In this document: positions 1,325 through 47,219 of the stretch, in pieces
Position numbering within the stretch: position 1 is the stretch's first letter
Layout: each line of letters opens with the position of its first letter
Source: an uncultured Gammaproteobacteria bacterium
GTDB taxonomy: Bacteria; Patescibacteriota; Patescibacteriia; Patescibacteriales; GWE2-39-37
Direction of reading: 5' to 3'
Assembly: GCA_964443495.1 (NCBI GenBank)
Contig: CAYUCS010000001.1
Coordinates: 405,496 to 469,495, forward strand
Length of the DNA: 64,000 nt
Position numbers and translations under genes: made by a program
Notes under the pieces: generated by a model
What the model was told of the DNA's origin: nothing
The model's database searches: none
What the model saw: the letters and a program-made list of their open reading frames with translations, nothing else

Positions 1325-1630
1325 ATGGATAAAAATAAGTCACAAACAAAATTGTCACAAGTTGTTATTGCATCAATAATTTCGGCAATAGTTTTTGTTG
1401 CGTTAATGAGATGGTATATTTTATGGTTATTTGATGGGGTTCAGATTTACAGTGCTCTTGTCTTTATTTATCCTCGGGTCTGGGTGCCTCCATTGCTAAT
1501 GTTTATTTCGGTGCCAATTTCATTCGCCTCTATTTTTAAATGCAAGGATGAAACACTTAAAGTATTATCACTTCAATTATTGTTCGTTTCGTTGATGGTG
1601 GCCGGTGTTATTATTTTCAGCCCGTTCTAA
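1325..1630 (+). CDS. Small hypothetical membrane protein (3 predicted TM helices)
   Basis: 101-aa ORF with hydrophobic stretches, lying in a visibly AT-rich islet between gap and the hydrogenase operon. No recognisable motif. Confidence 0.4.
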   Translation: MDKNKSQTKLSQVVIASIISAIVFVALMRWYILWLFDGVQIYSALVFIYPRVWVPPLLMFISVPISFASIFKCKDETLKVLSLQLLFVSLMVAGVIIFSPF

Positions 1631-1652
1631 ATATATTAATTTTTGCATAGTA

Positions 1653-2705
1653 ATGGTAAGTATTATAGAAAAAATAAGAATAGCGAAATTGGTCGGACGG
1701 GGCGGCGCTGGGTTTCCAGTGGCTGATAAGTGGCAGATGGTATTCGATGCCAAGGGCGAGAAGAAATATGTGGTTTGCAATTGCTCTGAAGGTGAGCCTG
1801 GCCCGAAAAAGGATGGCTGGCTCATCTGGCATTACCCGGATCGGATCATCGACGGCATGCGTTTGGCGATCGAGTTTCTCGGGGCCGAGAAAGGTGTTTT
1901 TTATTTGAATCAGGAATACTACAAGAAGTATAAGAAGATATTGGAAGATGCGATTGCGGATAGCCGGGCGCCGATCGAGCTTTTTGCCAAGCCGCACGTA
2001 GCGGGCTATATCGGCGGGGAAGAAACCACAGTACTTAATGTCATTGAGGGCAAGCGAGCCGAGCCGCGCCTGCGTCCGCCATTTCCAGTGACTTCCGGAC
2101 TTTGGGACTGTCCGACTTTGGTGAACAATGTCGAAACTTTTTATAATGTCAGCTTGGTGGCGCGTGATGAGTTCAAGAATCTGCGCTATTACACCATCGG
2201 CGGCGACTGCCTGTACGAAGGAGTCTTCGGATTTCCGGCCGATATGAATGTGGGTGAGGTGCTTAAGCAGACTAATAATTATCCGAAGTACGATTTCTTC
2301 GTCCAGGTCGGAGGCGACGGCTCGGGCGAGGTCTGGTCGCAGAAGCAATTGGACAAGCCGGCTATCGGCGCCGGCTCCATCCGAGTCTATAGCCTTTCCA
2401 AATACAAGCCCAACGACCTTCTCAGGCAGTGGGTCAAATTTTTCAAGGACGAGTCTTGCGGCCAGTGCACCGCTTGCCGCGAGGGCACCTATCGGCTGGC
2501 AGAAATACTGGAAGAAGAGAAGCCTAATTGGCCGATGGTTGCCGATTTGCTGGCAAACCTGAACGACTCTGCTTTCTGCGGTCTGGGCAGTGCCGTGCCG
2601 ATTCCGGTGACGAGCTATATCAAGAATGTCCTGGCTGCCTATCCGGAGAGTAAGACCAATCTGCCGATGGGAGCCAAGAGGCTGATGACAAGCTGTTTTA
2701 ATTAA
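1653..2705 (+). CDS. NuoF/HoxF-like NAD(P)H-binding FMN/FeS flavoprotein (hydrogenase diaphorase subunit)
   Basis: Motifs: GRGGAGFP, CNCSEGEPGPKKDG, YIGGEETTVLNVIEG, ESCGQCTACREG plus FCGLG (N3-type 4Fe-4S). Start placed at the ATG at 1653 (MVSIIEK); the track start at 1605 would overlap the upstream ORF. Confidence 0.85.
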   Translation: MVSIIEKIRIAKLVGRGGAGFPVADKWQMVFDAKGEKKYVVCNCSEGEPGPKKDGWLIWHYPDRIIDGMRLAIEFLGAEKGVFYLNQEYYKKYKKILEDAIADSRAPIELFAKPHVAGYIGGEETTVLNVIEGKRAEPRLRPPFPVTSGLWDCPTLVNNVETFYNVSLVARDEFKNLRYYTIGGDCLYEGVFGFPADMNVGEVLKQTNNYPKYDFFVQVGGDGSGEVWSQKQLDKPAIGAGSIRVYSLSKYKPNDLLRQWVKFFKDESCGQCTACREGTYRLAEILEEEKPNWPMVADLLANLNDSAFCGLGSAVPIPVTSYIKNVLAAYPESKTNLPMGAKRLMTSCFN

Positions 2706-2714
2706 AATAATCAT

Positions 2715-3554
2715 ATGAGCCCAATTTATCGTCCTAAGACGCATCCTGTCAGGCGAGATGGCAAGCTGAGCGAATTCGAGCAGCTGCTCAAGGAATCGTT
2801 CAGGATTTACAAAGCAAAGTTCAACCTGGTCCTGCCGCTCGCTATCATCCTGATGATCAATTCATTGGTTCTGGCCGGCGCCAATTATTTCGTTTTCCGA
2901 GCGATCGGATTAAGGGCCGGGCTGAGCTCCGCCGCCGCCTTGCTTTTTTGGCTCGTCGTCGTGGCTTTGACCATATATGTATATTCGCTCTGCCAAGCCG
3001 CATTGTTGACAGCGCTCAGAGAGAAGGTTGCGCCGGAAATCAAGAAGCTGTTCAAGCACGCGAGAGTGATCGCGTTAGGTTATGCCAAGCTGTACGTTTA
3101 CGTACGCGCCTTGATCCTGATGTGGATGCTCCCGTTCATCGCCGCCATGGTCGCATTGCTGGCTAGGCATGGCCAGCCGTTCGGCTCTGACGCCGAGATA
3201 GTATCGACCGTTTCTTACGCGCTGCCATTGGCTATCCCGGGGCTCGTCTTCATCCTTCTTTATGCCTTTTCTTCATACGTCTTCGTATATGAAGGGGAGA
3301 CGATCGCTGAGTCGGTCAAGACGAGCAAGCGCATGGTCGGACGGTTTTTCTGGCCGCTCTTGGGCAAGTATTCCTTGCTGCTGCTTTTGAACTTGGCTGT
3401 CTATTACATCATCAATTGGGGAATCGGCTTCTTGCCGGGGGAGGCGGCCAAGCAGCTCTTGTCGCGCCTGTTCGACAGCTTGATCGGACCGGTCTACACG
3501 ATCTTCGGCTACCTATTGTATCAGGAAATCAAGGAAATTAAGACTGAAAAATAA
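2715..3554 (+). CDS. Hypothetical polytopic membrane protein embedded in the hydrogenase operon
   Basis: 279 aa with about 6 hydrophobic segments. Starts 10 nt after the previous stop, and its stop overlaps the next start (TAATG at 3552-3556). Confidence 0.6.
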   Translation: MSPIYRPKTHPVRRDGKLSEFEQLLKESFRIYKAKFNLVLPLAIILMINSLVLAGANYFVFRAIGLRAGLSSAAALLFWLVVVALTIYVYSLCQAALLTALREKVAPEIKKLFKHARVIALGYAKLYVYVRALILMWMLPFIAAMVALLARHGQPFGSDAEIVSTVSYALPLAIPGLVFILLYAFSSYVFVYEGETIAESVKTSKRMVGRFFWPLLGKYSLLLLLNLAVYYIINWGIGFLPGEAAKQLLSRLFDSLIGPVYTIFGYLLYQEIKEIKTEK

Positions 3555-5266
3555 TGCCTGAAAATAAGATCAATATCACGATTGATGGCAAGAAGGTCAG
3601 CTGCCTGCCGGGCCAGACCGTCCTTGAGGCGGCGGCGGCTAACGGCGTGGAAATCCCAAGCCTGTGCGAGCATCCTGATTTTCCGCACAAGGCAAATTGC
3701 CGGGTCTGCGTCGTGGAGGTCAAAGGACGGCGCAATCTCGCTACTTCGTGTTCGACGCCGGTGGCTGAGGGCATGGAAATCCAGACTAACTCTGACCGAG
3801 TCATCCGTTCCCGCAACCTTAATTTGGAGATGATTTTCGCCGAGCATATCGAGAAATGCGCGACCTGCGTCTGGCGTCTCAACTGCAAGCTTCTGGCCTA
3901 CTCGGCCAAGTACAAGATATTGTTGACGACCTTCAAGGATCGCAAGGCAAATCGGCTGACGTACAAGTTCGAGAATGCGGTCGAGCTGGACGGCGCTCAG
4001 TGCATCGATTGCCGCAACTGCGTCGATGCTTGTTCCAAGCTGCAGAAAATTAATTATCTCCAAGTCAAAGGCAAGGGCTCGGACCAGGAAATATGCCCGA
4101 CCGACGACAAGAATGTGGCTTGTATCCTGTGCGGCCAGTGCGCTGTGCATTGTCCGGTCAGTTCAGCTCAAGAGCAATATCATTATCAGGAAGTCCAGAA
4201 GATAATCAAGGAAGGGAAGAAGACGGTCGTCATCCAATTCGCCCCCTCGATCCGCGTTTCGATCGGCGAAGAGTTCAATTTGCCCTACGGCGCGATCGTG
4301 ACCGAGCAGATGGTCGAGGCGATGAAACTGCTGGGCTTCAATTATGTTTTTGATGTGAATTTCGCCGCCGACGTCACGACCATGGTCGAGGCGGGCGAGC
4401 TGATCGAGCGCATCAAGGATGGGGGCGCCATGCCGATGCTGACTTCGTGCTGCCCCGCTTGGGTGCGCTACGTCGAGTATTACCGCCCCGACTTGATTCC
4501 GAACTTGACTACTTCGCGTTCGCCGCAGATACACTTGGGCGGCATCATCAAGACTTTCTGGGCCGAACAGGCCAAGATAGATCCGAAAAATATCGTCGTC
4601 GTATCGGTCATGCCATGCACGGCCAAAAAATATGAAGCCGCCCGCGCTGAACTAAAGATCGGCGGCGACAACCCCGTCGATTACGTCCTGACCACGCGCG
4701 AGCTGGCATTCATGATCAAGACTGCCAATATCGATTTTTCCAAATTGAAAGGCGTCAAAGCCGACGAGCCTTTAGGCGAATACACTGGCGCGGCCGCGCT
4801 GTATGGAGGCTCTGGCGGCGTTATGGAATCGGCCTTGCGCACCGCCCAAGCCGTGATTTGCGGCGAGGACAGTCCGCTGTGCCATGACCGTCTGGAATTC
4901 TTGGACGCGCGCGGCCTCGATGGCATCAAAGAGGCGACGGTCGAGATGGGCCAACGCAAGCTGAGAGTAGCTGTCATCAATGGCATCGGCCATTGGAAGG
5001 ATTTCGAGCCGAGGCTCAAGGAGTTCGATTATATCGAGGTCATGTCGTGCCCGGGCGGCTGCATCGGCGGCGGCGGCGAGCCGATTCCGACGACCGATGC
5101 CATCCGCAAAGCACGAGCCCAGGCCCTGCTCAAGATCGATCGCGATATGCCGGTGCGCGAGGCGCACAAGAACCAAGGCGTCAAGAAAGTCCTGACCTGG
5201 CTCGAGCAGCGAGGCAAAAGCTTCGAGCACGGCGTCCTGCATACGAAATATATAAAAAGAAGATAG
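3554..5266 (+). CDS. hydA: [FeFe]-hydrogenase catalytic subunit with N-terminal 2Fe-2S and multiple 4Fe-4S domains
   Basis: H-cluster signatures TSCCPAW, MPCTAKKYE and EVMSCPGGCIGGGGEP. N-terminal plant-type ferredoxin-like domain, a HIEKCATCVWRLNC (NuoG/HoxU-like) motif, and two CxxCxxCxxxCP motifs. Confidence 0.9.
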   Translation: MPENKINITIDGKKVSCLPGQTVLEAAAANGVEIPSLCEHPDFPHKANCRVCVVEVKGRRNLATSCSTPVAEGMEIQTNSDRVIRSRNLNLEMIFAEHIEKCATCVWRLNCKLLAYSAKYKILLTTFKDRKANRLTYKFENAVELDGAQCIDCRNCVDACSKLQKINYLQVKGKGSDQEICPTDDKNVACILCGQCAVHCPVSSAQEQYHYQEVQKIIKEGKKTVVIQFAPSIRVSIGEEFNLPYGAIVTEQMVEAMKLLGFNYVFDVNFAADVTTMVEAGELIERIKDGGAMPMLTSCCPAWVRYVEYYRPDLIPNLTTSRSPQIHLGGIIKTFWAEQAKIDPKNIVVVSVMPCTAKKYEAARAELKIGGDNPVDYVLTTRELAFMIKTANIDFSKLKGVKADEPLGEYTGAAALYGGSGGVMESALRTAQAVICGEDSPLCHDRLEFLDARGLDGIKEATVEMGQRKLRVAVINGIGHWKDFEPRLKEFDYIEVMSCPGGCIGGGGEPIPTTDAIRKARAQALLKIDRDMPVREAHKNQGVKKVLTWLEQRGKSFEHGVLHTKYIKRR

Positions 5267-5267
5267 T

Positions 5268-5894
5268 ATGGATTATTTAAACGAAGAAGAGCCGGTTGGC
5301 AAGATCGGTGAAGATGAGCTTGAGGCCTTGGCCGAAGAGGAAGAGGCGTCTGGCGACGAGGGCGGAAGGGTCGAAGAGGAGGAGATGGAACGGGTAGATG
5401 CAAAAATCATGGCCTGGTTTCTGGGGTTATCGACAACTGCCATGTCCGTACCCTTGATCGTCCACCTGCAGCCGTTCAGCGGTCCCATCATCAATGCCGT
5501 CCTGATCCTGATACTGTTCATTGTCGGCATCCGCAGCGCTTTGGTCGTCGCTCTCATCCCTAGCCTGGTGGCCTTGGCCGGCGGTTTGCTGCCCGCCATT
5601 TTGGCACCGGCCGTACCGTTCATCATGCTCAGCAATGTGATATTCATAATTACCATCGATTGGTTCTATAATACGATCGTCGATCCGCAAAGGGGATATT
5701 GGACCGGAGTCCTGATCGGCGCTGGTCTGAAGTTCGCTTTCCTGCTAGCCTCGACTAGCGTCGTCTCGGGGTTGCTGCTTAAGCAGGAACTGGCGCCGAA
5801 GGTGGCGCAGATAATGAGCTGGCCGCAGTTCGCCACAGCCGTGGTCGGCGGCGCGATCGCTTGGATGGTCTTAAGATGGCTAAAGAAGATATAA
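5268..5894 (+). CDS. Hypothetical membrane protein with acidic N-terminal tail, embedded in the hydrogenase operon
   Basis: 208 aa with a highly acidic first ~45 aa (EEEPVGKIGEDELEALAEEEEASGDEG...) followed by about 5 TM segments. 1-nt gaps to both neighbouring genes. Confidence 0.6.
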   Translation: MDYLNEEEPVGKIGEDELEALAEEEEASGDEGGRVEEEEMERVDAKIMAWFLGLSTTAMSVPLIVHLQPFSGPIINAVLILILFIVGIRSALVVALIPSLVALAGGLLPAILAPAVPFIMLSNVIFIITIDWFYNTIVDPQRGYWTGVLIGAGLKFAFLLASTSVVSGLLLKQELAPKVAQIMSWPQFATAVVGGAIAWMVLRWLKKI

Positions 5895-5895
5895 T

Positions 5896-6366
5896 ATGGA
5901 TAATCAAAAGAAAAAAGTCGGAGTTTTTTCGATTACTTGCGACGAGGGCTGCAGCATCTATCTGATCGAGATTTTCAACAAGAAGCTGCTTGGGTGGTTG
6001 GAGAAGATGGAAATCAAGTACTTCCTGTCGATGAAGGACAAGGTCGAAATCAAGGATTTTGATATCGTGCTGATCGAAGGCGTCATATCCTCGGAGCGCG
6101 ACTTGCGCGAGGTAATAAAAATCCGCGAGAATACCAAGGTGTTGATCGCTATGGGCACCTGCGCCATGACCGCTTTCCCGTCGGGCCAGCGCAACAACTT
6201 CACTCCGGAGCAGCTTGAACGCATCCAGCCGAAGCTCAAGGAGTTCAGCTATTTGCCCAAGTGTTTGGCCCTGAAGGATGCGGTCAAGGTTGACGACAAC
6301 ATCCCGGGTTGCCCTATTGACGAGAAGAAATTCATCGAGGTATTCGAAAAATGGCTGAACATGTAG
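5896..6366 (+). CDS. [NiFe]-hydrogenase small subunit (group 3-like, NuoB/20-kDa fold)
   Basis: 156 aa. Cysteines sit in SITCDEGCS, MGTCAM and PGCP contexts typical of the proximal 4Fe-4S cluster of short group-3 small subunits. Lies directly upstream of the large subunit. Confidence 0.75.
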   Translation: MDNQKKKVGVFSITCDEGCSIYLIEIFNKKLLGWLEKMEIKYFLSMKDKVEIKDFDIVLIEGVISSERDLREVIKIRENTKVLIAMGTCAMTAFPSGQRNNFTPEQLERIQPKLKEFSYLPKCLALKDAVKVDDNIPGCPIDEKKFIEVFEKWLNM

Positions 6367-6386
6367 CGTGTAACACGTAACATGTA
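6360..6386. repeat. Left arm of ~27-bp imperfect inverted repeat flanking the four-helix-bundle cassette
   Basis: CATGTAGCGTGTAACACGTAACATGTA. It continues into three tandem YGTAACA heptamers (6369-6389) and pairs with the reverse complement of 6746-6772. Confidence 0.75.
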
Positions 6387-6393
6387 ACAATGT

Positions 6394-6738
6394 ATGAATA
6401 CTTATCATGATAAACTAAAGAAAATAATGGATGAATATGCTCATGGTGTTTATCGCGCAACAAAAACTTTTCCGAAAGAGGAGCTATTTGGGATAACTTC
6501 ACAAATTAGAAGATCGTCACTGTCTGTTGTGCTTAATTATGTTGAAGGTTATGCCAGAAGAAAGGGTGATAAGTGTAAGGTATATCAGAATTTTATGGAA
6601 ATTGCATACGGATCATTAAAAGAGTCAAAATATTTGTTGAATTTTTGTTTGGTTGAGGGATATATTAATAAAAATCAATTTGAACAGTTAAATGGTATGG
6701 CAGACCAAATCGGCGCCATGCTTTACAAAATTAATTAA
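6394..6738 (+). CDS. Four-helix-bundle protein (23S rRNA intervening-sequence protein family)
   Basis: 114 aa. The motifs ELFGITSQIRRSSLSVVLNYVEGYARR and AYGSLKESKYLLNF are characteristic of this family. The gene is markedly AT-richer than its flanks. Confidence 0.75.
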   Translation: MNTYHDKLKKIMDEYAHGVYRATKTFPKEELFGITSQIRRSSLSVVLNYVEGYARRKGDKCKVYQNFMEIAYGSLKESKYLLNFCLVEGYINKNQFEQLNGMADQIGAMLYKIN

Positions 6739-6745
6739 ATTTTGC

Positions 6746-6772
6746 TGCATGTTACACGTTACATGCTACATG
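6746..6772. repeat. Right arm of the inverted repeat flanking the four-helix-bundle cassette
   Basis: TGCATGTTACACGTTACATGCTACATG. Its reverse complement, CATGTAGCATGTAACGTGTAACATGCA, matches the left arm at about 24 of 27 positions. Confidence 0.75.
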
Positions 6773-6779
6773 AAATACT

Positions 6780-8075
6780 ATGCATACCTGTGATTTGAAC
6801 GTTAGCATCAACAAGCTTTCCAAGATAGAAGGCCATGCCGACCTGGATGTCGAAATCAAGGACGGCAAGGTGGTAAATGTCGATTTGCGCGTCATGGAGA
6901 ATCTGCGTTTTTTTGAGGAAGCCGTGAAGGGGCAATCGGCTTTGGCCGTGCCGACGCTCGTGTCTCGCATCTGCGGCACTTGCTCGATCGCCCACCTGAC
7001 TGCCTGCACTGAGGCGGTGGAAAAGACTCTGGGCATCAAGATTACGGAGCAGACGCTGGCGCTGCGCAAGCTGACCATGCACAGCCTGATGATCCGTGAC
7101 CATGCATTGCATCTGTATTTTTTCGTGGCGCCGGACCTGTTCGGCGTCGATTCAGCCCTAGACATTCCGGAGGAGCACAAGGAGCTGATCCATCAAGCGT
7201 TGCACATCAAGGAGGCGGGCAACAACCTTTCGACCTTGGTGGCCGGACGTTCGGTGCATGCGACTTACGAGATGGTCGGCGGCTTCAGCCACGTGCCGGA
7301 AAAGGAAAAGATCGCTCCGACCATCGAGGAGCTTCGAAGCATCCGGCCCATGGTCTTGGATCTCTGTGAGATTTTTTACAAATGCGACTGGGTGTTGAAG
7401 CGCAAGACCAATTTTGTCGCCTTGGCTACGGATGATTTCTCCTATCTCGAAGGCAGGATCAAGAGCTCGACCGGGGCCGTAATCGAGGAAAAGGATTATT
7501 GGGACCACTTGCACAAGGTGATCATTCCATATTCGCAGGCTTCGGGCTTCGAGTTCGAAGGCGAGGAATTCATGGTCGGCTCCCTGGCTCGGCTGAATCT
7601 GAACAAGGAGGCGCTCCATGCCGACACCAAGCGCGACGCCGCGAAATACCTGGAACTCTTTCCGTCTGATAATATTTATCACAACAACCTGGCCCAGGCC
7701 ATCGAGATACTGCATTCGATCGACCACTCGATCGAGCTCTTGCAGAAATACGATTTCAAGAAAGAGGAAATCGTCAAGCCGACCGTCATGGACGGCGAAG
7801 GCGTCGGCGTAATCGAAGCGCCTCGCGGGACGCTTTATTACTGGCTCGGAGTCAACGGCGGCAAAGTACGCTATGCCAATCTGATCATCCCGACGGCCCA
7901 GAACCTGGTGAATATGCGCGAAGACGTCCGCCAAGCCGTGATGAATATCTGCGCGATCGGGGGAGAGAAGGCGGAACTCGAAGAGCGTATCAGGAAGGAG
8001 ATGGAAAAGATGATCCGGGCTTACGACCCGTGCATGTCATGCGCTTCGCATTTCTTGAAAATCAATTGGAAATAA
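6780..8075 (+). CDS. [NiFe]-hydrogenase large subunit (group 3-like)
   Basis: 431 aa. N-terminal RICGTCSIAH and C-terminal DPCMSCASH nickel-binding cysteine pairs, with a short tail after the His consistent with endopeptidase processing. Confidence 0.9.
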   Translation: MHTCDLNVSINKLSKIEGHADLDVEIKDGKVVNVDLRVMENLRFFEEAVKGQSALAVPTLVSRICGTCSIAHLTACTEAVEKTLGIKITEQTLALRKLTMHSLMIRDHALHLYFFVAPDLFGVDSALDIPEEHKELIHQALHIKEAGNNLSTLVAGRSVHATYEMVGGFSHVPEKEKIAPTIEELRSIRPMVLDLCEIFYKCDWVLKRKTNFVALATDDFSYLEGRIKSSTGAVIEEKDYWDHLHKVIIPYSQASGFEFEGEEFMVGSLARLNLNKEALHADTKRDAAKYLELFPSDNIYHNNLAQAIEILHSIDHSIELLQKYDFKKEEIVKPTVMDGEGVGVIEAPRGTLYYWLGVNGGKVRYANLIIPTAQNLVNMREDVRQAVMNICAIGGEKAELEERIRKEMEKMIRAYDPCMSCASHFLKINWK

Positions 8076-8076
8076 G

Positions 8077-8104
8077 AAAACGCCCCGCTAGCCGGGGCGT
8101 TTTT
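8077..8104. terminator. Bidirectional rho-independent terminator between the hydrogenase operon and the convergent protease gene
   Basis: AAAA-CGCCCCG-CTAGC-CGGGGCG-TTTTT: a 7-bp GC stem flanked by an A-run and a T-run. Confidence 0.7.
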
Positions 8105-8489
8105 GTGAGAATTCTTTGATTTTCTTGGCTAACTGCTCGAAAACCTTGACGCTGTCGCCGCCGGCCGGCAGTCCGAAGATGGTAACTTTGTCGAGCAGCC
8201 CGATCTTGGAAAGGAGTTTCAGGTTGAAGCCGAGATCGAGGTCGTGCAGCGAGTAGTTGGGTGAACGCTCGATCTTGTCGAGGTCAGTCAGGACGACGAC
8301 TTCTTCCGGGCCGACTACGGTATCGATCAATATCAGCTCGCCGTTTTCCGGCCGGAGATTCTCGTTCGGATCCTGCCAGATGAAGTCGAATTGCGGAAAC
8401 GCCAGCTTCAAGGACGGCTCGAGGATCAGCGGCAGATTATCTTCAGCTAGAAGAGGGTTGCCAAAAAGATAAATGGTTGTTTTTTTCAT
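8088..8489 (-). CDS. Hydrogenase maturation endopeptidase (HycI/HoxW-like)
   Basis: 133 aa. Motifs FGNPLLAEDNLPL (GNxxxxDD-like), IDTV and SLHDLDL match the metal-ligand pattern of [NiFe] maturation proteases. Convergent with the large-subunit gene. Confidence 0.6.
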   Translation of the reverse strand: MKKTTIYLFGNPLLAEDNLPLILEPSLKLAFPQFDFIWQDPNENLRPENGELILIDTVVGPEEVVVLTDLDKIERSPNYSLHDLDLGFNLKLLSKIGLLDKVTIFGLPAGGDSVKVFEQLAKKIKEFSQKRPG

Positions 8490-12953: not shown

Positions 12954-12959
12954 TTACCA

Positions 12960-13037
12960 CGGGCTGTGGTATAGTGGTATTACCTGCCTGCCGGCAGGCA
13001 GGCGCACGCGCGTGCGTTTCGATGGCGAGGGCCAGCA
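12960..13037 (+). pseudogene. Decayed tRNA-Pro copy: intact 5' half, 20-bp palindrome inserted, anticodon loop missing
   Basis: 12955-12983 is identical to 13061-13089, which covers the tRNA-Pro acceptor and D arm. After the palindrome comes GCACGCGCGTGCG (anticodon-stem halves with no loop) and a TTCGAT T-loop remnant. There is no matching 3' acceptor strand. Confidence 0.5.
12983..13002. repeat. Perfect 20-bp palindrome CCTGCCTGCCGGCAGGCAGG (copy 1)
   Basis: Exact self-complementary 20-mer, also present at 17782-17801. Immediately followed by a second perfect palindrome, CGCACGCGCGTGCG (13003-13016). Confidence 0.9.
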
Positions 13038-13065: not shown

Positions 13066-13136
13066 CGGGCTGTGGTATAGTGGTATTACGCACGCTTCGG
13101 GTGCGTGTAATCGCGGTTCGATTCCGCGCAGCCCGA
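13066..13136 (+). tRNA. tRNA-Pro (anticodon CGG)
   Basis: Manual cloverleaf: acceptor CGGGCTG/CAGCCCG, anticodon stem CACGC/GCGTG with loop TTCGGGT, T arm CGCGG-TTCGATT-CCGCG. No encoded CCA. Confidence 0.8.
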
Positions 13137-13137
13137 C

Positions 13138-17781: not shown

Positions 17782-17801
17782 CCTGCCTGCCGGCAGGCAG
17801 G
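17782..17801. repeat. Perfect 20-bp palindrome CCTGCCTGCCGGCAGGCAGG (copy 2; palindrome extends to 24 bp, 17780-17803)
   Basis: Identical to 12983-13002. Sits in the 235-bp divergent intergenic region, flanked by AAATTTTCAAT at 17765-17775 and 17808-17818. Confidence 0.9.
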
Positions 17802-17870
17802 TTTCCTAAATTTTCAATGAAAATGCGATTCGGTTTGGAAATTAGAAGTTAGAAATTAAGAATAGATTTT

Positions 17871-19010
17871 ATGGATTACTATCAAAAATCGCTAGCGCTG
17901 CATAAGAAAAAGCGCGGCAAGATCGAAATAAGGTCCAAGGTGCCATTGAAAACCAAGGAGGATTTGTCCGTCGCCTACACGCCTGGCGTGGCTGAGGTCT
18001 GCCGGGCTATCGGCAAGGATGTGACCCAGTCCTGGCTTTTGACCAACCGTGCCAATCAGGTGGCCGTAGTATCTGACGGTACGGCCATTTTGGGATTGGG
18101 CGATCTTGGGCCCGAGGCGGCGATGCCGGTCATGGAGGGCAAGGCCATCATCTTCAAAGAGTTTGCCGGTATCGACGCGGTGCCGTTGTGCATCGATTCG
18201 ACCGTGCCGGAAGAAATAGTCAAATTCTGCAAGATGATCGCGCCAAGCTTTGCCGGAATCAATCTGGAAGACATCTCCGCACCGCGCTGCTTCGATATCC
18301 TGAAGCAGCTGGAAAAGGAATTGTCGATACCGGTATTCCATGACGATCAAGACGGGACGGCAATCGTCGTCTTGGCCGCCTTGATCAATGCCTGCCGCGT
18401 TACCGGCAAAGTAATGAAAGAATTGACCGTGGTGGTCAACGGCGCCGGTGCCGCGGGCATAGCCATCACCAAGCTGCTGCTGGAGCAGGGGGTCAAGGAT
18501 GCGATCCTGCTCGACTCTTCCGGCACCATCTATCGAGGCCGCCCGGGCATGAACGGCTTCAAGGTCGAGATTGCCAAGATTACCAACAGGAAAAAGGTCA
18601 AGGGCGGACTGAGCGAAGCCTTGGCCGGCGCCGATGTTTTTGTGGGCGTTTCAAAGGGCAATCTGGTTACCGAGAGCATGGTGCGAACCATGAATGAAAG
18701 CCCGATCATCTTCGCGATGGCTAATCCGGTTCCTGAAATAATGCCGGAGGCGGCCTATGCCGGAGGGGCCAGCATCGTCGGCACTGGACGCTCGGACCTG
18801 CCGAATCAGGTCAATAATGCTTTGGTCTTCCCAGGACTCTTTCGCGGCCTGCTCGACGGCAAGGCGCGAGGAGTTTCAACCAAGATGAAGCTGGCGGTCG
18901 CGGTCGCGGTCGCCTATACGGTCAAGCCGACCAAGGGCAAACTGCTGCCCGCCGTGACTGACAAGAAGGTGGTTAAGGCCATCCGTGACGTCGTAATAAA
19001 ATACAGCTGA
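17871..19010 (+). CDS. NAD(P)-dependent malic enzyme (short form)
   Basis: LSVAYTPGVAEVCRAI, VVSDGTAILGLGDLG, NLEDISAPRCF and VVNGAGAAG. Confidence 0.9.
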   Translation: MDYYQKSLALHKKKRGKIEIRSKVPLKTKEDLSVAYTPGVAEVCRAIGKDVTQSWLLTNRANQVAVVSDGTAILGLGDLGPEAAMPVMEGKAIIFKEFAGIDAVPLCIDSTVPEEIVKFCKMIAPSFAGINLEDISAPRCFDILKQLEKELSIPVFHDDQDGTAIVVLAALINACRVTGKVMKELTVVVNGAGAAGIAITKLLLEQGVKDAILLDSSGTIYRGRPGMNGFKVEIAKITNRKKVKGGLSEALAGADVFVGVSKGNLVTESMVRTMNESPIIFAMANPVPEIMPEAAYAGGASIVGTGRSDLPNQVNNALVFPGLFRGLLDGKARGVSTKMKLAVAVAVAYTVKPTKGKLLPAVTDKKVVKAIRDVVIKYS

Positions 19011-47151: not shown

Positions 47152-47219
47152 GATACTAAGTTTTGACTTTTGGATTTTGATTTTTGACTTGAAACATCGT
47201 GCACATCAAGGAGGAAAAT

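Follow-up and report, generated by a model that had tools for sequence, protein, structure and literature searches.

How can a streamlined bacterial genome carry a foreign gene exactly between the genes for the two subunits of one enzyme? The question is raised by a 64,000-nucleotide stretch of contig CAYUCS010000001.1 (hereafter the window, meaning this whole stretch), in which a 413-bp segment at positions 6360-6772, holding one gene, separates the small- and large-subunit genes of a [NiFe] hydrogenase of the group 3b type. The gene belongs to the S23p/IVP family (PF05635), which is known from intervening sequences (IVSs) in ribosomal RNA (rRNA) genes. We read the segment as a foreign hairpin cassette of the IVS kind in the mRNA of the hydrogenase operon, in which a stem of tandem heptamers would loop the gene out, and we give this reading as a whole a probability of about 60%. 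Within it, an IVS-type hairpin cassette in an operon mRNA is well supported; processing of its stem by RNase III is only an analogy. Hydrogenase assembly needs both of the subunits that flank the cassette, and tolerance of a 413-bp guest between them in a genome of the Candidate Phyla Radiation (CPR) implies that the insertion is neutralized at the level of RNA.

IVSs that carry an IVP gene have remained a puzzle ever since the early 1990s, and the short tandemly repeated repetitive (STRR) sequences of cyanobacteria have gone unexplained for 35 years. The S23p/IVP family counts thousands of members, for which two crystal structures are available and, to our knowledge, no function is known outside diversity-generating retroelements (DGRs). 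The locus and its relatives suggest that the family, the IVSs and the STRR repeats are the same thing. Where IVP genes occur in operons, cas operons among them, they may be passengers that were inserted and not functional partners of their neighbors. The host of the window is a member of Candidatus Falkowbacteria (CPR), the name carried by its near relatives; its large-subunit protein is 100% identical to an NCBI protein.

The cassette at the hydrogenase junction

The segment is bounded by the arms CATGTAGCGTGTAACACGTAACATGTAACA (left) and TGCTGCATGTTACACGTTACATGCTACATG (right). The original prediction, made by inspection of the letters, proposed imperfect inverted repeats of ~27 bp with about 24 complementary positions. 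The arms are identical at 23 of 27 positions, and 25 of 27 can pair when G-U pairs are counted, which agrees well with that estimate. The prediction also recognized that the arms are built of tandem heptamers, but it counted three units per arm where there are four (Table 1). Read inward, the heptamer has the form RYGTARC, and the two arms are inverted. A repeat finder reports them as an inverted repeat of 44 nt at 75% identity with a core of 21 nt at 86%, and lists no repeats besides the arms. The arm 21-mer is confined to the two arms in 64 kb (0 expected), the five occurrences of the GTAAC-type motif in the window all fall within the arms (0.25 expected), and an identity of 17/21 at lag 7 is reached in the window only by the left arm. 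A second copy of the protein (sought with tblastn) or of the arm motif was not found in the window.

The left arm lies on the end of the small-subunit gene, as had been predicted: the TAG stop (6364-6366) and the last codon fall within its first heptamer, and the protein ends in ...L-N-M-stop as against ...L-N-A/Q-stop in relatives. Further stop triplets follow at 6371, 6378 and 6385, and their spacing of 7 nt places stops in all three frames. The right arm, also as predicted, ends (6772) just before the large-subunit ATG (6780), although with 7 nt between and not 8. This short spacer is identical in a cassette-bearing relative (L001) and similar in empty-site relatives (AAACCC, AAATCTT, AAACACT). 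The large-subunit start, ATGCATAC..., is conserved across all relatives compared, and no Shine-Dalgarno-like sequence was found in the start region, neither in the window nor at the empty sites.

Folding of 6340-6790 pairs the arms in both the minimum free energy (MFE) and the centroid structure (z = -2.57), so that the long stem proposed earlier is recovered, and the energy of the arm-arm duplex is -38.3 kcal/mol. As in IVSs, a long terminal stem (~28 bp; 6360-6389/6743-6772) encloses an open reading frame (ORF). The enclosed gene is indeed richer in AT than its flanks. The GC content of the cassette is 0.30-0.34 against a window mean of 0.53 (sd 0.045), and the GC content at third codon positions (GC3) is 0.27 in its gene against 0.73-0.74 in the host genes. 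The composition of the cassette is foreign to the host. GC3 is similarly low in two hosts (0.27-0.33 for 6394-6738 in the window and 1816-2160 in L001, against 0.68-0.74 in the genes of these hosts) despite more than one substitution per synonymous site. This leaves two explanations, selection for AT-richness or independent acquisition of the two cassettes.

The assignment of the gene to the four-helix-bundle family of rRNA IVSs was confirmed by profile matches to PF05635 (E = 6.5e-26, 91.1 bits, cut-off 33.8) and TIGR02436 (91.5 bits, cut-off 24), with which the predicted fold agrees. The AlphaFold model consists of four helices (pLDDT 95) and superimposes on Xcc0516 (2GSC) with a TM score of 0.87 and an rmsd of 0.9 A, on BT_0352 (2RLD) with 0.82-0.86, and on Avd (4DWL) with 0.77 at ~11% sequence identity. 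The 2GSC and 2RLD structures contain five chains each, i.e., they are pentamers. Those among the nearest 120 homologs that have a source name are all from CPR (Patescibacteria) and are annotated as "four helix bundle protein". Comparison with the ortholog in L001 gives a dN/dS of 0.025 at a dS of 1.13, comparable with that of the hydrogenase subunits. These values mark the IVP protein as functional and under strong purifying selection.

The original prediction called for a search for empty sites, and these were found. In a comparison set of 12 distant genomes, with large subunits 67-81% identical to that of the window, the two subunit genes are adjacent in eight, with 4-25 nt between stop and ATG. 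Three others carry unrelated hairpin inserts of ~100 nt at the junction (L010, L016, L017), and the last (L020) carries a different IVP (34% identical) with other heptamer arms, of the TTGTAGG type. Small structured inserts of various kinds seem to land at this junction. The short inserts lie at 2380-2480 in L010, at 2400-2495 in L017 (TGTCATCCCG...CGGGATGACA) and at 2405-2500 in L016, where ACGAATA-type repeats are seen; that of L010 resembles that of L017. The gene is also absent from four close relatives (94-98% identical in amino acids, 80-88% in nucleotides), in which the spacers measure 17-39 nt; of these, L103 has two TAATTTA units at the junction, whereas that of L102 is bare.

An orthologous cassette is present in L001 and L002, with IVPs 95% identical in amino acids and 86% in nucleotides. 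Flank identities are star-shaped, and L001 and L002 are not the nearest relatives of the window. Since they nevertheless share the cassette, at least two gain or loss events have to be assumed. Comparison of genomes shows the segment to be an insertion, and the cassette has come and gone over times comparable to those in which species diverge. Recent transposition would be betrayed by near-identical copies in different places; a search for such copies turned up, at unrelated sites, only cassettes of 80-84% identity. Identical cassettes do occur at the same site in diverged strains, where they look like the product of homologous recombination through the flanks. In L089, L094, L098 and L100, the IVP ORF and ~110 nt upstream are 100% identical while the further flanks are 81-94% identical; the right arm differs at five positions, and the whole looks like a recent recombination tract or a sweep that included the cassette. 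There was no sign of carriage by phages, as viral contigs yielded no relatives.

Table 1. The hydrogenase junction: features, positions in the window and basis of assignment.
Feature	Position	Strand	Basis
[NiFe] hydrogenase small (delta) subunit, group 3b type	5896..6366	+	ORF; PF01058 E = 2.4e-19; best NCBIfam matches are sulfhydrogenase delta subunits
Left arm: C + ATGTAGC (6361-6367) GTGTAAC (6368-6374) ACGTAAC (6375-6381) ATGTAAC (6382-6388) + A	6360..6389	+	direct reading, repeat finder
IVP gene (PF05635/TIGR02436), 114 aa, filling the hairpin loop	6394..6738	+	profile matches, predicted structure
Right arm: T + GCTGCAT (6744-6750) GTTACAC (6751-6757) GTTACAT (6758-6764) GCTACAT (6765-6771) + G	6743..6772	+	inverted copy of left arm
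Residual original spacer, AAATACT	6773..6779	+	comparison with relatives
[NiFe] hydrogenase large (alpha) subunit, group 3b type	6780..8075	+	PF00374 E = 7.2e-37; sulfhydrogenase alpha 265 bits

The same design in other genomes

The design is found across the gene family. Eighty metagenome loci from CPR bacteria were fetched by protein similarity, a choice that leaves the sample blind to the flanks, and 73 of them are non-redundant. In these, identity within each of the two flanks peaks sharply at lags 7 and 14, with lag-7 self-identities of 0.46 and 0.52 against a background of ~0.27. The left arm shares 4.9 7-mers with the reverse-complemented right arm of the same locus and 1.5 with those of other loci (reached in 0 of 2000 permutations), whereas only 0.74 7-mers are shared between the flanks in direct orientation. 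The anchored heptamer logo reads W-T-R-W-A-A-C, with A5 at 98% and C7 at 96%, and arrays most often contain four units. In 55 of 71 loci, the two flanks are joined by 12 bp or more in the MFE fold; the median is 19 pairs, vs. 6-8 in controls. Other copies of the gene family do have inverted heptamer arms, as the original prediction required. A locus between gatC and gatA even has the outer ends of the window cassette, CATGTAGC...GCTACATG.

The IVP gene is usually codirectional with its surroundings. It shares the direction of its upstream neighbor in 59 of 64 loci; for the downstream neighbor the figure is 64 of 70, and for both neighbors at once 50 of 61. In the window, a promoter-like site is lacking from the end of the small-subunit gene to the IVP start, as is a terminator-like site on the + strand, and the only promoter-like match in the cassette itself (6637-6666) does not exceed chance expectation. 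Consequently, the IVP gene would be transcribed within the hydrogenase mRNA, and orientation and lack of signals together indicate that the cassette rides on host transcripts. No rRNA gene was detected within the 64-kb window, and the flanks of the cassette being hydrogenase subunit genes, its location is not that of a classical IVS. Likewise, an Rfam scan placed none of 14 gene-poor CPR loci in rRNA, and the remaining loci have protein-coding ORFs on both sides.

Stops in all three frames fall within 35 nt in 42 left arms and 32 right arms of the 73 loci when the arms are read inward, and in 8 and 13 when they are read outward. That such stops are the purpose of the heptamers holds in the CPR loci and was rejected as a general rule, because the heptamers of Xanthomonas, cyanobacteria and Azospirillum described below mostly lack stop triplets in our own reading.

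Beyond CPR, a Xanthomonas locus was found by using the Xcc0516 stretch of a PDB alignment as query. There, an XCC0516-type IVP gene lies between accB and accC, and its arms consist of four GGGAATC heptamers (30 nt, 83% complementary); the left arm starts 3 nt past the stop of accB, and the right arm ends directly at the ATG of accC. IVP genes on cyanobacterial plasmids are flanked by TAGGGAG/TCCCTAC (L109), AGGGAAC/GTTCCCT (L110), TAGGGTG/CACCCTA (L111 and L115), AAGGGAA/TTCCCTT (L118) and GGTGACA/CTGTCAC (L112, between cas6 and cas4). STRR-type arrays thus do flank PF05635 genes on cyanobacterial plasmids. In 15 non-CPR loci, an identity of 16/21 at lag 7 is reached in nine upstream and 11 downstream flanks, vs. 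three of 179 control windows; in L120 and L121, the right arm is short.

One further locus, L119, connects the design to rRNA. It is the 23S rRNA gene of the Azospirillum lipoferum plasmid AZO_p2 (RF02541, 790 bits), with an IVP gene inside in sense orientation. Its arms consist of about five inverted heptamers per side (CAGAGGA CGGATGA ... / ... TCATCCG TCTTCTG) and form a duplex of -64 kcal/mol. These arms are built like those of the window, which makes the classical protein-coding IVS and the hydrogenase cassette alike and provides the strongest support for the IVS idea; the comparison with rRNA arms rests on this one rRNA example. The presence of one gene-in-hairpin design from rRNA to operons, in distant bacteria, looks like the mark of one widespread, hitherto unrecognized type of genetic element. 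The original prediction of an IVS-like cassette inserted in a polycistronic mRNA was thus sustained by the empty sites, the family-wide design, the Azospirillum IVS and transcription codirectional with the host genes.

Some of the non-CPR loci lie in CRISPR-Cas operons. Heptamer-flanked IVP genes are located between cas6 and cas4 in Anabaena 90 and Pseudanabaena and between cmr2 and cmr3 in Picosynechococcus (L112, L116 and L114). IVP genes that lie in cas operons have been interpreted as functionally linked to them (PMC3936711, PMC10910872). Instead, this published link between 23S_rRNA_IVP and CRISPR-Cas may reflect insertion of the cassette and not a Cas function.

Mechanism, objections and rival explanations

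If the cassette behaves as we propose, the arrays would pair in the hydrogenase mRNA to a stem of ~28 bp that extends from the small-subunit stop to 7 nt before the large-subunit start. As the stem spans exactly this interval, the foreign gene would be looped out and the host genes brought next to each other, which would make the insertion tolerable. One of two outcomes is probable. RNase III might cut the stem by analogy with rRNA, yielding separate IVP and subunit messages. The precedent is the IVS of Coxiella, described as 428-444 nt long with an S23p ORF and a 28-bp terminal stem cut mid-way by RNase III (PMC4990558). Alternatively, the ribosome that terminates on the small subunit might open the stem and free the large-subunit start, in which case coupling would be kept. 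Because a ribosome arriving at the stop codon, at the base of the stem, would melt the structure, the stem could preserve coupling as well as bring about the uncoupling that the original prediction proposed. The heptameric build would further allow the arms to pair in several registers and to be repaired by slippage, and binding of the arrays by the pentameric IVP protein is a further possibility.

Several observations weigh against this reading. The first concerns the stem itself. Overall, the arms are only ~81% complementary, and their mismatches (88 compatible with wobble pairing in the sense strand, 86 in the antisense strand and 144 transversions, at 1640 aligned positions) show no RNA-strand signature, so that selection on a sense stem is not indicated. 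What is conserved looks, from the alignments, like the heptamer motif rather than individual base pairs. Chimeric duplexes of window and L001 arms reach -40 and -42 kcal/mol, vs. -38 and -36 for the cognate ones; the arms of the window, L001 and L003 are interchangeable in duplex energy, and no compensatory change can therefore be demonstrated. There is also no RNase III signature in the 64-kb window, and comparison with the empty sites gave no target-site duplication at the boundaries, which are fuzzy by a few nt because the first heptamer overlaps the stop codon. Two cyanobacterial loci do not conform. In L109, the IVP gene is antisense to its neighbors, and in L116 (Pseudanabaena), which is the clearest exception to the rule of inverted arms, the arrays are direct: 14 units of AAAGCTA upstream (434-543) and nine of AAAGCCA downstream (904-1010). 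Finally, arrays are common where there is no cassette. The fetched CPR loci contain 236 raw lag-7 hits in 298 kb (overlaps counted separately), half of them away from IVP genes. Once overlaps are merged, the arrays away from IVP genes number 85; the majority are solo, and a few form gene-less hairpins. Solo tandem heptamers (TAGAAAT/TTAAAAT, 4-6 units) are present even at the hydrogenase junction of the close relatives L101 and L104.

Solo or ORF-less arrays are also found in L012-L016, which were fetched through the hydrogenase gene and carry no IVP. The window itself contains two further arrays, each in a leader and immediately ahead of a gene start. One is of the TTAGAAA type (17835-17863, followed by an ATG at 17871), the other of the TTTTGAC type (47159-47190, followed by a GTG at ~47199); the former type is the same as that of the solo arrays at the hydrogenase junction of L101 and L104. 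In a cluster of pilin-like genes in L031, every junction is occupied by a hairpin of the form (CATGAAA)n...(TTTCAAG)n, and an IVP gene sits in one of these. At 504-690 and 1523-1600 of that locus, reading frames stay open through the right-hand arrays, in which an ATG every 7 nt gives a start per frame, and the prepilin leader peptides may be partly encoded by the repeats. Arms of IVP genes resemble arrays on the same contig (0.231) more than those on other contigs (0.134), a "local dialect" not reached in any of 2000 permutations. The arms belong to a general class of tandem-heptamer arrays, which resemble cyanobacterial STRR and also occur without a gene, a point that escaped the original prediction. 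In filamentous cyanobacteria, 7-bp STRR hairpins are located between hupS and hupL, and roles in transcript stability or translational coupling have been proposed, the function of STRR being still unknown (PMC2670836).

The arm mismatches carry no RNA-strand signature, and the heptamers may accordingly serve, in place of or besides pairing, as binding sites of the pentamer. According to this explanation, which is compatible with a looped-out cassette and which we regard as a tentative alternative, the arrays would primarily be candidate RNA or DNA sites for the ring-shaped pentamer encoded by the cassette itself; the stem would be a side effect, and the protein would autoregulate, protect or mark the element, or aid its spread. 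It would account for a conserved motif without conserved pairing or wobble asymmetry, for lineage-specific heptamers that appear as the same variant in both arms (RYGTARC, ATGAAAC, GGGAATC, AGGGAAC, TAGGGTG, CAGAGGA), for the direct arrays around the IVP gene of L116 and for the likeness of arms to arrays on the same contig (0.231 vs. 0.134; 0/2000 permutations). The structural relative Avd is pentameric in an RNA-protein complex (8UB7), and arrays usually have 4-5 units where 2GSC and 2RLD are pentamers, although this correspondence is numerology so far. Solo and ORF-less arrays, however, are common even where there is no IVP gene (L012-L016), and likeness within a contig can stem from local duplication, as in L031.

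A non-autonomous, MITE-like (miniature inverted-repeat transposable element) DNA transposon with a passenger gene, mobilized by a transposase elsewhere, would explain the terminal inverted repeats, the presence/absence polymorphism among close relatives, the foreign composition and the related cassettes (80-84% nucleotide identity) in unrelated flanks, and it would leave the stem irrelevant; the other small hairpin inserts at the junction in L010, L016 and L017 would also suit it. We nevertheless consider it unlikely. Besides the missing target-site duplication, no transposase lies in or beside the cassette in the window and the surveyed loci, and symmetrical cut-and-paste ends would not predict the orientation bias (59 of 64 with the host) without extra selection. 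Moreover, differences in arm length and register come in whole heptamers, also among orthologs, and the identical cassettes of diverged strains look like homologous recombination through the flanks.

Change by whole units, together with the solo arrays at the junction in L101, L103 and L104 and in the window at 17835 and 47159, is what would be expected of neutral slippage repeats in AT-rich spacers, next to which an ordinary accessory gene happens to lie, with a symmetry that is coincidental or functionless. This is very improbable, given that the inverted symmetry is family-wide and locus-specific (0/2000 permutations; 4.9 inverted vs. 0.74 direct 7-mers), that the design persists despite the high GC content of Xanthomonas and also within a 23S rRNA gene, and that the arms of the window and L001 have diverged by ~27-30% (hand count), roughly half the synonymous divergence of the IVP gene (pS 0.58). 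That the gene is the Avd of a DGR can be regarded as refuted for practical purposes: its fold (TM 0.77) and weak matches to bAvd (28.8 bits) and NF033474 (23.3 bits) are all that point there, the scores being far below the cut-offs (40 bits for PF22296, 80 for NF033474), sequence identity ~11% and the neighbors hydrogenase and unrelated genes without a reverse transcriptase.

Between these alternatives, the foreign hairpin cassette of the IVS kind remains our preferred reading of the locus. A much wider idea, which we put forward with considerable reserve, is that PF05635 proteins and tandem-heptamer arrays form one ancient, cross-phylum system of "autonomous" (gene-bearing) and "non-autonomous" (gene-less) elements in host transcripts, in which the pentamer would recognize the arrays of its own lineage. 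If true, it would bring under one explanation the rRNA IVSs that encode a protein, the STRR repeats including the hupS-hupL hairpins, and the "four helix bundle protein" genes, thousands in number, that are wedged between subunit genes as at accB|accC, gatC|gatA, nrdB|nrdA and the hydrogenase small|large junction, and the link of IVP with cmr2|cmr3 and cas6|cas4 would be hitch-hiking and not function.

Gene neighborhood and relation to known systems

The gene order around the hydrogenase genes (1605-8489) is unusual: a NuoF-like gene, an unknown gene of 279 aa, an [FeFe]-hydrogenase-like gene (3554-5266) and an unknown gene of 208 aa (5268-5894), whose product has an acidic N-terminus and hydrophobic segments, precede the [NiFe] group-3b subunits, and a convergent ORF of 133 aa without family match closes the neighborhood. 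The order is also kept in L101-L103. A second AT-rich island (1301-1700, GC 0.34) contains an ORF of 101 aa (1325-1630, + strand) whose product resembles a small membrane protein; on its two sides lie a GAPDH-like gene (285-1292) and the NuoF-like gene (1605-2705), and no heptamer arms were seen around it. Elsewhere in the window, the first ~27 nt of the tRNA-Pro(cgg) gene (13066-13137) are duplicated ~105 nt upstream, at 12957-12985, and the duplicate runs directly into the palindrome CCTGCCTGCCGGCAGGCAGG (12983-13002), which could be the scar of an integration at a tRNA gene. The palindrome, a perfect one of 20 nt of which 0 copies are expected in the window, recurs at 17782-17801 embedded between AATTTTC heptamer-like repeats, and it may be a dispersed genomic repeat.

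IVP genes outside rRNA are already known as annotations, and the inserts in CPR 16S and 23S rRNA contain IVP ORFs (PMC11270868). In a literature search that largely left subscription journals uncovered, no statement was found that the IVS architecture is kept outside rRNA or that its arms are tandem heptamer arrays. Nor was there one that STRR-type arrays flank PF05635 genes. An older mention of any of these points in subscription journals is possible.

The cassette can be compared with five known systems, among them Avd and the REPIN/RAYT elements. The IVP protein shares a homologous four-helix bundle with Avd, which is a pentamer in an RNA-protein complex (4DWL, 8UB7), whereas the locus has no reverse transcriptase and no template or variable repeats, and the thresholds of the curated models are not reached. 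With REPIN/RAYT, it shares a dispersed intergenic repeat in the form of hairpins and single units, a gene flanked by inverted copies and a genome-specific "dialect". However, RAYT is an HUH transposase of known chemistry, whereas IVP is a helical bundle of 114 aa without recognizable catalytic site, and REPINs are made of single palindromes instead of tandem heptamer arrays; the likeness would be a functional analogy only.

The structural counterparts XCC0516 (2GSC) and BT_0352 (2RLD) have the same fold (TM 0.82-0.87) at a protein identity of 29-30%. In the case of XCC0516, the resemblance extends to the genomic setting, since this gene, too, forms a hairpin cassette that separates the genes for two subunits of a single enzyme (accB and accC), although the Xanthomonas cassette has a host-like, GC-rich composition and heptamers without stop codons.

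The STRR hairpins between hupS and hupL (PMC2670836) are also tandem 7-bp repeats, capable of forming a hairpin and located in the spacer between the small- and large-subunit genes of a [NiFe] hydrogenase, and the gene-less arrays at the hydrogenase junction of L101 and L104 parallel them. In contrast to STRR, the element in the window carries a gene, its host belongs to CPR and not to the cyanobacteria, and the hydrogenase is of group 3b rather than group 2.

Together with the STRR hairpins, the closest counterparts are the rRNA IVSs of Leptospira, Coxiella burnetii, Brucella and Azospirillum. These are elements of ~400-450 nt with a single sense PF05635/S23p ORF inside a host transcript, in which a stem of terminal inverted repeats of ~28 bp encloses the ORF (PMC4990558), and in the Azospirillum example (L119) the arms are inverted tandem heptamers as well. 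Unlike in rRNA IVSs, the host transcript in the window is the mRNA of a protein operon and the site an intergenic spacer. Excision by RNase III has been demonstrated for rRNA IVSs (PMC4990558) and would apply to the window cassette by analogy. The ORF of the Coxiella IVS is thought to be untranslated (PMC4990558), whereas the IVP gene of the window is held under strong purifying selection.

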